Below are positions 24,185 through 53,933 of a stretch of 64,000 nt of DNA, piece by piece; position 1 is the first letter of the stretch, and every line of letters begins with the position of its first letter. Source of the DNA: a virus. Its lineage: Duplodnaviria; Caudoviricetes. A program made the position numbers and the translations under genes. A model generated the notes under the pieces. That model worked only from the letters and a program-made list of their open reading frames with translations, was not told the origin of the DNA and did not search any database. The stretch is taken from the IMG/VR virus record IMGVR_UViG_3300027805_000006; one strand, given 5' to 3'.

Positions 24185-24297
24185 GACTTCCTTTGAATTG
24201 ATGGGAATAGACCTACCCCAACTGCTTCTCTAACCTCTTGTTGCCAGTGAAAATCGATTTTATCAAAAAAGGCTTCTGCTAGATAAGTGACATTCAT
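24181..24297 (-). CDS. Small ORF (38 aa, MNVTYLAEAFFDKIDFHWQQEVREAVGVGLFPSIQRKS) filling the yeaH-spoVR gap
   Basis: Read by hand. It has ATGA overlaps with both yeaH (stop) and spoVR (start). Confidence 0.6.
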   Translation of the reverse strand: MNVTYLAEAFFDKIDFHWQQEVREAVGVGLFPSIQRKS

Positions 24298-25658
24298 GCT
24301 GATGCCTTTGGCTTCTTTGCATATATTGAACGGAAGGCGCTAAAGACTGCGCTATCTTCTCCGATCTTGATAGCATGCATCTTTGGATTTGTACGCGAAA
24401 TTGACGTCATTACATTCCAAAGTGAAACTCCAGAGGCGTAGTTAAAGGTACCAGCAATAGACATACCTACCTGTACATAGACAGCATGACGCAGTTTAGC
24501 AATCAGCCCGTTCTCTTCAAGTTCTGCAATTACCTGTGGATTATCAGAGTCCCAGTTATCGCCATCTCCCGCATATGAAAGATAGATATTTGTTTGCTGA
24601 ATATCATATCGTGTCTTAATGATATCGTGCGCAAGTTTAAATGCTGGGGAAACAATGGTACCACCGCTCTTTCGTGTAGTAAAGAAATCCTCTTCAGTCA
24701 TCTCCTCCGCACCATCAGTGTGAGCGATAAAGATAAGATCGGTGTTTGGATATTTCCTCTTGATGAAGGCATACTGCAGTGAAAAGAATTTTCTGGCAAC
24801 TCGCTTCTTATTCTCATCCATAGAGCCGCTAATGTCCATCACCATCACAAGAACCGCGTCAGCCTGCTTTACCTGAATACGCTCGCTCTTTTTGTAGCGA
24901 AGATCAACTTTTTCAAAGAATGGAATAATTGAAATTTTTGACTTTAGTTCTTCAATGCGCTGGATAACATCTTTTCGACGTGCTTCGTAACTTGCGCTTA
25001 TCGGATTTCCAGAAAGAAATTCTTCAATTTTTTCTAGTTCTTTTTCAAGTGCAGCAAGTTCTTCACGGCTTTCGGCGGCGACGGCACGTCGCCGCCCAAT
25101 TGAATTTCTAAATGAGCGAATTACACTAAGTTGAGCAGCATTGCCTTCCTTCTGAAAACCTGCAGGCTTCCATACTGCTTCAGGCAGGTCCTTTTCATTT
25201 GTTTCAAGAAGATCAGGTAGTTCGCAGTCTTCAAAGAAAACATCAAAGAATTCTGAGCGACTAATATTGACAATAAAATCATCTTCGCCATCTTCGCCAG
25301 GTCCGGAACCATTTCCTCTGCCACCTCTGCCACCACCACTTCGGTCAATAATAAACTTATCACCTCTTTCCCAACGGTCATTTCCAATGAGTATGCTTTC
25401 GTAGTTTCCAGTTGATGAATCGTAGCGGAAGGTAGGCTCATGAAGTGCGTCCTTCGCAATCTTCACCGGATTGATAAACGACTTAGAGGAAGATTGACCT
25501 CCAGCCGCCTTTACTCCTCCAGCATCGATATCTACTGGCTTTGATTGACGAATACTATCTTTAATCCGTGCCAGTAATTTAGAACGATTATTAAGTGACT
25601 TGCCTCTGCTAGTTTTGCGTCTATCAACGAAAATGAAAGTCGTTGACGGTAAAGTCAT
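24294..25658 (-). CDS. yeaH: YeaH/YhbH (DUF444) vWA-domain protein
   Basis: FVDRR..SRGKSL.N, MDISGSM MIDAS motif, FFTTRKSGGTIVS, YAGDGDNW. Confidence 0.92.
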   Translation of the reverse strand: MTLPSTTFIFVDRRKTSRGKSLNNRSKLLARIKDSIRQSKPVDIDAGGVKAAGGQSSSKSFINPVKIAKDALHEPTFRYDSSTGNYESILIGNDRWERGDKFIIDRSGGGRGGRGNGSGPGEDGEDDFIVNISRSEFFDVFFEDCELPDLLETNEKDLPEAVWKPAGFQKEGNAAQLSVIRSFRNSIGRRRAVAAESREELAALEKELEKIEEFLSGNPISASYEARRKDVIQRIEELKSKISIIPFFEKVDLRYKKSERIQVKQADAVLVMVMDISGSMDENKKRVARKFFSLQYAFIKRKYPNTDLIFIAHTDGAEEMTEEDFFTTRKSGGTIVSPAFKLAHDIIKTRYDIQQTNIYLSYAGDGDNWDSDNPQVIAELEENGLIAKLRHAVYVQVGMSIAGTFNYASGVSLWNVMTSISRTNPKMHAIKIGEDSAVFSAFRSIYAKKPKASA

Positions 25659-25659
25659 A

Positions 25660-25863
25660 TTAGCCCCTTAGAAATAGAAGCGTATAGAAAATGCCAGTAG
25701 CGCAAAACCAAGTGTATCCTACTGACCAAATGGCAAGTGAATTTCCAAACATAAAAGGAATCCAACCAAAAGTTGCCAATAGAAAAGCATATGCCTTGCC
25801 TCTGTTGCTCAGACCATCTAGCCAAGAATAAAACTTGCTTGTGATATTAGATAAAATCTTCAT
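25660..25863 (-). CDS. Small membrane protein inserted between prkA and yeaH
   Basis: 67 aa with two hydrophobic segments and a GGAGG SD. Confidence 0.7.
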   Translation of the reverse strand: MKILSNITSKFYSWLDGLSNRGKAYAFLLATFGWIPFMFGNSLAIWSVGYTWFCATGIFYTLLFLRG

Positions 25864-25884
25864 ATTCAGTCCTCCAGAATGTTA

Positions 25885-27843
25885 CTAGGCCGCCTTCCTA
25901 TTGTTAGTAAACCAAGCAACTAGAATCTTTGTCTGATTTTCAGTATACCCCTTTTCAAGCATTCGCTCAACGAAACCGCGGTGTTTTTCTTCTGTGTCCT
26001 TGTCCTGCTTAGGTCCAAATGCAATGACTGGCATAATCTGCTCAGTGGCGCTAAACATGCGCTTTTCAATTACGGTCTTGATTTTTTCGTATTGGTCCCA
26101 AGATGGTGACTTGCCTTCGTTCTTTGCCTTGTAGCGCAGAACGTAATGAACGATTTCATTGCGGAAGTCCTTGGCATTTACAATACCAGCCGCCTTTTCA
26201 ATCTCTTCCAACTTCTTATTGAGATTTTCACGGTCAAGTAAAGTATGGGTCTCAGGGTCACGACATTGTTCGTCAGCCAACCAAGCCTCGGCGAACAAAA
26301 CATAGCGTTCAAACATATTCTGACCAAATGAGCGATAACTTTCAAGGTAGGCTGTGCGCAGTTCCTTTTCAAGGAACTCAAAGTAGCGTGGCTGGAGGTG
26401 TGACTTGATGAAGTCAAGGTACTCATCAGTCGTTTCCTTTGGAAGATTTTCCTTCTTCACGCTCTCCTCAAGCACGTACATTAGATCAATAGGGTTTGCC
26501 TGCTGTTCCTCTGGGCGTAGGTCATAGGTTGCAGAAAGAACCTTGAAGGCGAAGCGGGTAGACATTCCCTTCATTCCCTCGTCATTCCCAGCGGCATCGC
26601 GATACTCTTCGTATGGCTTTGCATTGGGCATGGTGTCCTTTACGTTATCACCGTTATAAACGCGAAGTTTGGCGTAGATGGTACTGTTTTCTGGCTTCTT
26701 TAGGCGGGTAAGAATGCTCCACTGTGCCAGCATCTTAAGTGTTCCAGGTGCACATGGTGCAGTTGCGAGAGAACTTACCTTAAGCATCTTTTCGTAGATA
26801 AGAATTTCTTCAATAGTTCGCAAGCAGTATGGTACATCGACAATGTAAACCCGGTCAAGGAATGCTTCGTTAGTTTTGTTGTTGCGGAAATTGAACCACT
26901 CGCTTTCATTTGAGTGAGCCATAATAATTCCGGTATAAGGCATAGAAGGAATGGCTTCAGTGCCGTTATAGTTGTGTTCCTGTGTAGCCATTAGCAATGG
27001 GTTGAGCGTCTTGATATTTGCCTTAAACATTTCAGCAAAATCCATCAAACCCTGATTAGTGCGGTTGAGACCACCACTGTATGAATACGCGTATGGGTGA
27101 TTCTGAGGAAATTTTTCCAATTTACGAATATCAATCTTTCCAACTAGAACTGAAACGTCCTGGTTGTTTTCATCGCCTGGCTCAACCTTCATCACGCCGA
27201 TTTGGCTGTCCTTATTTGGATAAACCTTAATTACCTTAAAGCGGGTAATATCACCGTCAAATTCCTTCAATTTTTCCTGAGCCCACCCACTCATTACCGT
27301 ATTAAGGTAGCGCTGTGGAATTCCATATTCCTTCTCAAGCATTTCTCCGTGCTCAAACTGGTTGAATAGCCCTAGAGGGCTATCAAGAACAGGAGACATC
27401 CGCTTTTCTACATCATTTTCTTGTGCATCATAAAGAACATAGATTGGAAACTTCTGCATCAAAGCCTTTAGGCGCTCTGCAAGAGATGACTTACCACCAC
27501 CTACTGGTCCCTTTAGATACAGAATTTGCTTGCTCTCTTCTAGTCCTGCTGCACTATTTCGGAAGTATGCTGCAATTCGCTCAATTGCATCTTCTGCTCC
27601 GTAAAAATCAGCAAATGAACGATATAGACGAATTTTCTTGTTTGAGTGAATTCTTGAAAGACGAGCGTCTTCACTCGTATCAATAATTTCAGGCTGGCCG
27701 ATTGCAGCAACCATTCTCTCTGCTGCAGTTGCATAGGTCATTTTATCCTGCTTACACCTGTCTAGAAACTGTTCCAGCGAAATAATTTCTGGCTGGGCAA
27801 ATTTACTAGCAAATGAGGCGGAAAGAGATGAGAGAGCAGTCAT
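25885..27843 (-). CDS. prkA: PrkA/YeaG family serine kinase / AAA+ ATPase
   Basis: ILYLKGPVGGGKSS Walker A, EPGDENNQDVS.LVGK.DIRKLE, YSGGLNR.NQGLM.F.EMFKA, LAHSNESEW-like segment. Confidence 0.95.
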   Translation of the reverse strand: MTALSSLSASFASKFAQPEIISLEQFLDRCKQDKMTYATAAERMVAAIGQPEIIDTSEDARLSRIHSNKKIRLYRSFADFYGAEDAIERIAAYFRNSAAGLEESKQILYLKGPVGGGKSSLAERLKALMQKFPIYVLYDAQENDVEKRMSPVLDSPLGLFNQFEHGEMLEKEYGIPQRYLNTVMSGWAQEKLKEFDGDITRFKVIKVYPNKDSQIGVMKVEPGDENNQDVSVLVGKIDIRKLEKFPQNHPYAYSYSGGLNRTNQGLMDFAEMFKANIKTLNPLLMATQEHNYNGTEAIPSMPYTGIIMAHSNESEWFNFRNNKTNEAFLDRVYIVDVPYCLRTIEEILIYEKMLKVSSLATAPCAPGTLKMLAQWSILTRLKKPENSTIYAKLRVYNGDNVKDTMPNAKPYEEYRDAAGNDEGMKGMSTRFAFKVLSATYDLRPEEQQANPIDLMYVLEESVKKENLPKETTDEYLDFIKSHLQPRYFEFLEKELRTAYLESYRSFGQNMFERYVLFAEAWLADEQCRDPETHTLLDRENLNKKLEEIEKAAGIVNAKDFRNEIVHYVLRYKAKNEGKSPSWDQYEKIKTVIEKRMFSATEQIMPVIAFGPKQDKDTEEKHRGFVERMLEKGYTENQTKILVAWFTNNRKAA

Positions 27844-53187: not shown

Positions 53188-53634
53188 TTACTTGACTGAA
53201 ATCAGAAGAGGCTTATCCTCTTCACGTTCAACCACCTCAAGCGCAATAGACAAAAGCCCATCTTGCATTTCTGCTGATTTTACCACAACATTGTCTGCTA
53301 CAGTAAAGTTTCGGATGAATGAGCGCTTCGCAATTCCAATTCTTACGAGTTCACGACCATCAGGCTGCGGATAGTCTTCTTGACTACCTTCGGAAGAAAT
53401 TGATAGAACATTATTCTTACGATCATGGGAGATCTTAATGTCTTCCTTTCGATAACCTGCAAGAGCTATTTCGATGGTATATCCATCCTTTTCCTTGAAT
53501 AGGTTAAATGGAGGAAATCCATTTACTTGGTGCGTGGAATGGTTGGTTTCAAGCAGCCTTTCAATATCGCTGAAAAGGCGGTCAAAACCTAGGAAAGAAG
53601 TTTCAAGGGGCTTGTAAAAAGCAACACGGTTCAT
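53188..53634 (-). CDS. Small heat-shock protein Hsp20 (IbpA-like; start revised to MNRVAF)
   Basis: FLGFDRLF, FPPFNL, IEIALAGY, GIAKRSF.R.F, A.M.DGLL.I.L. Confidence 0.92.
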   Translation of the reverse strand: MNRVAFYKPLETSFLGFDRLFSDIERLLETNHSTHQVNGFPPFNLFKEKDGYTIEIALAGYRKEDIKISHDRKNNVLSISSEGSQEDYPQPDGRELVRIGIAKRSFIRNFTVADNVVVKSAEMQDGLLSIALEVVEREEDKPLLISVK

Positions 53635-53717
53635 AGTCATCTCCTTCAATAGAAGCAAGTTGATAAAAAGGGTTCCTAACGGCAACCCACTAAATTGAAG
53701 ACCCGTATGGCATCTTC
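53635..53717 (-). promoter_or_regulatory. ROSE-like RNA thermometer in the hsp20 5' UTR
   Basis: Hairpin I GAAGATGCC-ATAC-GGGTCTTC, hairpin II GGGTTGCC-GTTA-GGAACCC, hairpin III CTTGCTTCTATTGAAGGAG with the UUGCU motif opposite the AGGA SD. Confidence 0.7.
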
Positions 53718-53729
53718 AAATCTTATATA

Positions 53730-53933
53730 TTAATTTTCAGAAAATTCCTGCATCCACTTTTCAGGATATTCACCAGTATCAATAAACTTTACCTCTTCTT
53801 CTGTGAGGTCTGGGGCAAGTTTGGCTAAGTCTGCTCCCATGTTCCATGCAGCGAGTTGCTGCCGAGTCACGGCTATTTCCCGTGCATTTATGCTACCAGT
53901 TTTTAAGCAGCGTCTAATAACTTTCATGAGCAT
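53730..53933 (-). CDS. Conserved-type small phage protein
   Basis: R....TG......VT..QL..W..G.....P.LT.EE..FI.TG...E.W pattern, recalled from phage proteins. Confidence 0.65.
   Translation of the reverse strand: MLMKVIRRCLKTGSINAREIAVTRQQLAAWNMGADLAKLAPDLTEEEVKFIDTGEYPEKWMQEFSEN

Follow-up and report, generated by a model that had tools for sequence, protein, structure and literature searches.

ROSE elements are a feature of alpha- and gamma-proteobacterial small heat-shock protein (sHsp) genes (PMC3669281). ROSE-like thermometers lie in the 5′ leader of such a gene, comprise two to four hairpins and, in the 3′-proximal hairpin, pair U(U/C)GCU with the Shine–Dalgarno (SD) sequence; this SD hairpin melts with rising temperature, and translation responds to temperature accordingly (PMC3669281, PMC11182007). 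The phage RNA thermometers known are only those of lambda cIII and SPbeta blyA (fourU) and a sigma70 fourU element (PMC11182007). Like the leader considered here, these are cis-acting phage mRNA structures for which temperature gating of translation has been proposed or shown, but they have other folds and lie on other genes, none being of ROSE type and none on a chaperone gene. The present locus, on a contig of ∼330 kb from a giant freshwater phage, raises the question of whether a phage can carry ROSE-type control on an sHsp gene of its own. In the 64-kb stretch of DNA that was analysed (the window), positions 53717–53635 of the minus strand form the leader of an IbpA-like HSP20 gene. The features of the locus, numbered as in the window, are as follows.

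53732–53730, minus strand: stop codon of an upstream 67-aa gene, with TATATAAG directly after it
53729–53722, minus strand: degenerate late-promoter-like box TATATAAG, directly past the stop of the 67-aa gene
53717–53697, minus strand: hairpin I, GAAGAU-G-CC-AUAC-GG-GUCUUC, bulged G at 53711
53688–53670, minus strand: hairpin II, GGGUU-G-CC-GUUA-GG-AACCC, bulged G at 53683
53659–53641, minus strand: hairpin III, CUU-G-CUUC-UAUU-GAAGGAG, bulged G at 53656; thermosensor candidate
53634–53188, minus strand: sHsp gene (IbpA-like small heat-shock protein), 148 aa, HSP20/alpha-crystallin
53173–53153, minus strand: G+C-rich hairpin GGGAGGGG-loop-CCCCUCCC, 14 nt past the sHsp stop codon

The window contains phage tail-fibre and PHROG-only genes, and two small genes lie 5′ of the sHsp leader. 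The sHsp itself matches Pfam HSP20 (1.4e-11) and phrog_432 (6.6e-28); IbpA is its top NCBIfam match, under that model's cutoff, and identity to enterobacterial IbpA/B is only ∼37%. The C-terminal I-x-V motif is kept in the alignment. The start region reads AUGACUAUG and contains two in-frame ATGs, of which we take the second (53634–53632) to be the start codon, since GGAG abuts the first ATG while the second lies 6 nt past GGAG, and since the first is out of frame in the relative L003. This choice of start codon is the one correction to the preliminary description of this leader, which was otherwise accurate; the span it gave is exact, running from the initial G of hairpin I up to the nucleotide that precedes the conserved AUG. 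With its last base at 53635, the element directly adjoins the HSP20 gene, which begins at 53634, the location expected of a ROSE-like thermometer.

Two further features of the window were noted. The G+C-rich hairpin downstream of the gene, which was spotted via a spurious Rfam alignment, has no U-tract on the minus strand; it may end the transcript on its 3′ side or act as a stabiliser. Separate RNA-library contigs represent the sHsp gene and the downstream GNAT gene, only a weak hint as to where the transcript ends. Elsewhere, within 24294–27843 on the minus strand, a PrkA/YeaG-like serine kinase of 652 aa (54–60% identity to Ralstonia jumbo phage RsoM2USA, Enterobacter phage LAU1 and uncultured huge phages) is adjoined by a 454-aa gene that matches a 'sporulation protein' PHROG. 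Judged by sequence, the pair resembles a stress module of the yeaG-yeaH type, here carried by a phage.

The three consecutive hairpins of the preliminary description, the last pairing UUGCU with the SD, were recovered both in the single-sequence centroid fold and in the RNAalifold consensus. The GCC-N4-GG core with a bulge that hairpins I and II had been said to share was likewise seen, the bulged Gs being at 53711 and 53683. In hairpin III, CUUGCUUC is paired with GAAGGAG, corresponding to the ROSE signature of U(U/C)GCU against AGGA: UUGCU (53658–53654) is paired with AGGA (53645–53642) of the SD sequence GAAGGAG (53647–53641). The minimum free energy partners of U-U-G-C-U are A, G, none, G and A, leaving G53656 bulged and one U-G wobble, whereas non-canonical geometry in this hairpin (triple or G-G pairs) is invisible from sequence. 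The stem can be extended via UCA/UGA to 53663–53637 (UCA-A-CUU-G-CUUC-UAUU-GAAGGAG-A-UGA). The leader thus has the three hairpins, the imperfect U(U/C)GCU-SD pairing and the predicted bulged G and weak pairs of ROSE-like thermometers. Directly 3′ of hairpin II, the sequence UUUUUAU (53670–53663) is confined to this phage and L002, the relative closest to it. The folding energy of the whole leader as a single sequence was not significant (z = −1.8).

At 25, 37 and 45°C, hairpin III has predicted free energies of −9.5, −6.4 and −4.3 kcal/mol, respectively. The same calculation at 37°C gave −4.6 kcal/mol for E. coli ibpA and −6.1 kcal/mol for ibpB, and the value of −6.4 kcal/mol falls inside the range of the Pseudomonas sensor hairpins (−4.1 to −7.6 kcal/mol; PMC3669281). 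Among the phage leaders sampled, SD hairpins have a predicted free energy at 37°C of about −1.5 to −6.5 kcal/mol. In a nearest-neighbour model, the unpaired fraction of the SD rises from 0.07 to 0.15 between 25 and 42°C, a gradual opening only. The E. coli ibpA and ibpB controls had mostly paired SDs and opened equally gradually in the same model. SD accessibility was consequently rejected as a discriminator, since the thermometers of E. coli are also merely 'closed' in it; in a crude comparison with 18 other genes of the window, the predicted SD occlusion of the sHsp gene is mid-range.

Relatives were gathered by protein search and alignment query, so that retrieval was unbiased by RNA sequence. 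Related sHsps with 42–88% identity were found on metagenomic and viral contigs in synteny, the conserved order being a caspase-like protease, a 136-aa gene, an optional 66-aa gene, the sHsp, GNAT and a YfbR-like gene. These related phage contigs, from different samples, yielded 13 distinct leaders. When the locus was compared with deposited phages by megablast and blastn, no homologous leader emerged, only chance 49-nt matches in Vibrio phages, and exact-pattern and single-protein scans of IMG/VR returned no relatives. A model built from the phage leaders only (R1) found no second copy in the 64-kb window. In two of the relatives, c-di-GMP-I riboswitch aptamers (RF01051) scored well over gathering (L005:544–632, 65.1 bits; L009:523–611, 60.5 bits); they lie upstream of a 235–240 aa gene without known function, and the window has no such match.

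RNAalifold on a plain MAFFT alignment of the 13 leaders again gave hairpins I, II and III, the bulged G being present in all of them. In this alignment 94.1% of cells were paired and seven pairs had changed on both sides, which none of 500 shuffles matched, while registers slid along the alignment gave 43–61%. A covariance-model alignment, which is fitted to the structure and so leans toward it, gave 98.9% of cells paired and two-sided changes in six pairs; slid registers reached no more than 60% pairing. The covariation sits in hairpins I and II (GAAGAU/GUCUUC, GGAGAC/GUCUCC, GACGGC/GCCGUC and GGGCA/UGCCC), with four pairs showing compensatory changes in hairpin I across the 13 leaders. Hairpin III does not vary, except that the second base of U(U/C)GCU is either U or C (U-G to C-G): UUGCU is present in eight leaders and UCGCU in five. 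This switch occurs at exactly the variable position of the ROSE consensus.

We also compared 14 hsp20 loci of cultured phages, which with the 13 family leaders made a set of 27. The cultured phage sHsps are ∼31–39% identical to that of the window. A two-hairpin version of the element was found in 12 of the 14 cultured leaders: those of P-SSM3, P-SSM4, P-TIM40, S-PM2, Sf-FR1, S-CREM1 and S-CAM1, the pelagiphages Mosig, HTVC008M and HTVC115P, the Methylophilales phage Melnitz-3 and the Agrobacterium jumbo phage Atu_ph07. In this version a G-bulged stem, YGC(C/U)-loop-(G/A)G, precedes the hairpin (A)CU(U/C)GCU-loop-AAGGAG; U(U/C)GCU is present in 12 of the 14. The cyanophages S-TIM5 (L162) and S-TIM54 (L155) are without U(U/C)GCU and have another SD hairpin ∼30 nt upstream of hsp20, in which CCAC-G-CUU is paired with AAGGUGG around a bulged G (−6.1 kcal/mol at 37°C); from its modelled fold, this looks like a different anti-SD answer to the same problem. 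Since MAFFT alignments of the wider two-hairpin set were structurally inconsistent, an anchored tabulation with shuffle controls was used instead. A G-bulged YGCC-loop-GGR hairpin of the hairpin II type was present in 24 of the 27 phage hsp20 leaders; shuffles reached the observed hairpin in 0–4 of 200 cases for 23 of these, and in 43 of 200 for L012, which has a 1-bp arm. Each of the stem positions beside the bulge (p1–p4) is occupied by four or five pair types across the 27 leaders. The form in the window, with two tandem G-bulged hairpins and an SD hairpin, is an elaborate variant of this series.

An Rfam search for ROSE elements, which the preliminary description had proposed as a check, bore out the resemblance in part. 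Full-length matches to ROSE (RF00435; 31.4 bits, E = 0.018, model positions 1–94) and ROSE_3 (RF02523; 26.6 bits, E = 0.0053, the best E-value in the window) were obtained; both run up to the start codon and are correctly placed and oriented. However, both are under the gathering thresholds of 45 and 43 bits, respectively. ROSE_2 (RF01832, enterobacterial ibpA; gathering 65 bits) had no match in the window at E-values up to 10, and at gathering thresholds there was no match anywhere in the 64 kb. In the same scan the E. coli ibpA thermometer scored 100.4 bits with ROSE_2, 20.8 bits with ROSE_3 and nothing with ROSE. The three Rfam ROSE models are narrow, and scores of 26–31 bits fit a genuine but divergent ROSE-type element, because ibpA itself cross-scores only 20.8 bits on ROSE_3. 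With the relatives pooled into a 55 kb batch, filtering and E-value scaling removed most ROSE matches; in a smaller batch L001 and L015 matched ROSE_3 at ∼25 bits, and ROSE_3 scores were 34.1 bits for Melnitz and 28 bits for Atu_ph07. Two deposited phage records, Campylobacter phage A11a (L152, MG065691.1) and Pseudomonas phage Y7 (L151, OQ572409.1), contain ibpA-type genes with above-threshold ROSE matches. The former scored 100.4 bits with ROSE_2, identical to E. coli K-12, and the latter 69.2 bits with ROSE_3; both are unverified records that look like host DNA, and they were not counted.

Run against the E. coli K-12 chromosome (4.6 Mb), R1 gave a single match, the ibpB leader, at 25.2 bits, and it also matched ∼40 enterobacterial ibpA/ibpB leaders. 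The ibpB 5′ UTR, which lies in the ibpA-ibpB intergenic region, has been described as an RNA thermometer (PMC10410725). Like the phage leader, that of E. coli ibpB has three hairpins, the first with a CUC-G-CC-loop-GG-GAG core and a bulged G, and its terminal hairpin ACUCGCUUC-UUA-GAAGGAGAAAUGACUAUG corresponds almost base for base to ACU(U/C)GCUUC-loop-GAAGGAGA of the phage family. The terminal hairpins of ibpB (ACUCGCUUCUUAGAAGGAGAAAUGACUAUG) and of L004 (ACUCGCUUCUAUGAAGGAGAAAUUUCUAUG) are nearly identical. On the other hand, the overall score is only ∼25 bits, the middle hairpin differs, and the bacterial element lies within a sigma32-driven operon whereas that of the phage lies behind a late-type phage box. 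The phage sHsp is not a recent transfer from enterobacteria, since the proteins are only ∼37% identical. A scan of bacteria with the hairpin III pattern returned mostly Enterobacteriaceae ibpB leaders plus about the number expected by chance; as a pointer to donor or host it was rejected, since the seed is the hairpin itself and the proteins are so dissimilar.

The other described ROSE types share parts of this architecture. The Pseudomonas ibpA element (ROSE_3, RF02523; Krajewski et al. 2013, PMC3669281) has a G+C-rich GAUGCC-loop-GGGUC hairpin with a short, U(U/C)GCU-containing SD hairpin behind it, and this two-hairpin form is that of most cultured phages; the window differs in having an extra, duplicated G-bulged hairpin, making three in total. 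All three phage hairpins align to model hairpins of the rhizobial element (RF00435; ROSE1, Bradyrhizobium hspA), which also has a GCC-loop-GG first hairpin and UUGCU against GGAGGA, and both lie on class A sHsp genes. In contrast to the rhizobial element, the phage middle hairpin is far shorter and the phage terminal hairpin excludes the AUG.

In ROSE-like thermometers the anti-SD arm belongs to the transcript (PMC3669281, PMC11182007). The T4-type late promoter was taken as a TATAAATA / NATAAATA box ∼6 nt upstream of the transcript start. In 11 of the 13 related leaders, ATAAATA, the T4-type late promoter core, occurs at the position of TATATAAG, 3–5 nt before hairpin I; this phage and L002 have a degenerate late box, which reads TATATAAG. 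Elsewhere in the window there are nine [AT]ATAAATA boxes 20–45 nt upstream of an SD and ATG, which by sequence and position are putative T4-type late promoters. A T4-type late box precedes the leader in the jumbo phage family, Mosig, Melnitz, HTVC008M and S-CREM1, and TATAAT or TTGACA-N17-TATAAT does so in S-PM2, Sf-FR1, S-CAM1 and HTVC115P. The promoter type thus varies between phages, yet its position is always just 5′ of the first hairpin, which is an argument for hairpins that work at the RNA level and for a transcript whose 5′ end lies at the base of the first of them.

A contig from a freshwater metatranscriptome spans 53216–53669 and contains most of the coding sequence as well as hairpin III with its UUGCU arm, although DNA carry-over is possible. 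It stops 28 nt short of the stop codon, and contig ends are not transcript ends. RNA contigs leave 53670–53791, including hairpins I and II, uncovered; such contigs can show neither absence nor 5′ ends. A second sequence set gave no alignment to the locus. A transcript start downstream of the UUGCU arm, which the preliminary description had named as evidence against it, is unsupported by this contig, though again contigs cannot define 5′ ends.

Taken together, these data make it probable that the leader is a three-hairpin ROSE-type translational control element on the mRNA of a phage IbpA-like sHsp, with an SD hairpin that melts on warming. The earlier proposal of a ROSE-like element on a phage sHsp gene is supported by the SD-pairing anatomy, the covariation in relatives, a stability within the published range and the retrieval of ibpB by R1. 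Transcription most likely begins a few bases 5′ of hairpin I. In most relatives a T4-type late promoter would drive it; in this phage the degenerate late box would do so, or the leader would be transcribed by read-through out of the two small genes upstream. As stable stems with a bulged G, hairpins I and II would serve the 5′ end as a scaffold or as protection. Hairpin III would hold the SD sequence GAAGGAG against CUUGCUUC via weak pairs, including the U-G wobble and the bulged G, and at lower temperature would keep the 30S subunit off the SD, thereby repressing translation. On warming, it would melt in a zipper-like manner, allowing sHsp synthesis. We infer temperature-gated translation of the phage sHsp from homology of form, since the folding model cannot tell thermometers from other hairpins; the set-point of such a response would be subject to the same reasoning.

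How much of this could be accounted for in other ways? The leader might mainly bind an sHsp, either host IbpA or the phage protein, with repression lifted by titration onto aggregates, so that the aggregate load late in infection would be sensed instead of, or beside, temperature. E. coli IbpA represses ibpA and ibpB via their structured 5′ UTRs, and this repression is relieved by aggregates and requires an IX(I/V) motif (PMC10410725). The near-identity of phage hairpin III to the hairpin of the ibpB leader, the retrieval of that leader by R1, the I-x-V motif kept in the phage sHsp and a late promoter before the gene in most relatives, that is, at the time of bulk structural protein synthesis, are all in keeping with this mode of control. 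However, no RNA-binding determinant of IbpA has been defined, and the phage sHsp has diverged far from the enterobacterial proteins. We regard sHsp binding as the main function of the leader as unlikely; it is, moreover, compatible with a thermometer and would not exclude one. Alternatively, the leader could be independent of temperature, with its 5′ hairpins shielding the mRNA from 5′-end-dependent decay and a weak SD hairpin setting a low constitutive level of translation. This would fit an SD occlusion that is moderate, changes slowly with temperature and is mid-range among the genes of the window. A plain dampener, though, needs no exact U(U/C)GCU/bulged-G geometry, and this geometry is invariant while the sHsp diverges to 42% identity within the family and to ∼31–39% against the cultured phages; the same geometry is the thermosensing core of tested bacterial elements. 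We therefore consider a temperature-independent leader distinctly improbable.

The stem of hairpin II and the U-run behind it, present in the window and in L002, raise the possibility that 53688–53663 is an intrinsic terminator or attenuator of the two small upstream genes, and that the sHsp mRNA starts or is processed downstream and has a one-hairpin leader. The RNA contig begins exactly at 53669, the first U past the stem, and the late-promoter box is degenerate in this phage. Yet nine of the 13 family leaders lack the U-run and have ACAUC instead, while hairpins I and II covary; since the covariation persists without the U-run, the conserved role of these hairpins is not termination. The 10 nt between hairpins II and III are also too short for a promoter, and a contig that also stops 28 nt before the stop codon does not locate a transcript end at 53669. 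This arrangement would have very little chance of being correct. Finally, the sub-threshold Rfam scores and the unremarkable folding z-score would be expected if the hairpins were a chance resemblance without function. Against this stand the covariation relative to both controls (shuffles and slid registers), a position before sHsp genes that is kept in 25 of the 27 phage leaders, and ibpB as the sole match of R1 in 4.6 Mb of E. coli DNA; nor can assembly duplicates be responsible, given 13 distinct sequences from different samples. Chance resemblance is hardly credible.

A ROSE-type control element with a melting SD hairpin thus being our preferred reading of this leader, what is new here is a ROSE-like, SD-sequestering leader in a phage context, and its three-hairpin form. 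No description of a ROSE-type leader in phages, nor of an experiment on a phage copy, was found in the full-text literature, of which coverage is incomplete; a paper on a moraphage (PMC12619734) mentions a phage HSP20 but not leaders or thermometers. A broader and rather doubtful extension, based on a sample of freshwater jumbo phages, T4-like cyanophages, SAR11 and Methylophilales phages and Atu_ph07, is that a ROSE-type leader is a class-wide property of phage hsp20 genes and is inherited with the gene. Such a leader might act as a sensor of chaperone demand, responding to temperature and to titration of the sHsp onto aggregating virion proteins, and so provide sigma32-independent, post-transcriptional control of late proteostasis. 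It is an equally tentative part of this extension that the leader has spread across hosts without described ROSE elements, the titrated protein being either host IbpA or the phage sHsp.

If the ROSE-type reading is true, very abundant environmental viruses would tune chaperone synthesis post-transcriptionally, without the heat-shock sigma factor of the host. The phage copies would then constitute a natural series of short sensors, which may have low set-points useful to synthetic biology, and a reporter fusion would offer a simple handle on the role of phage sHsps.
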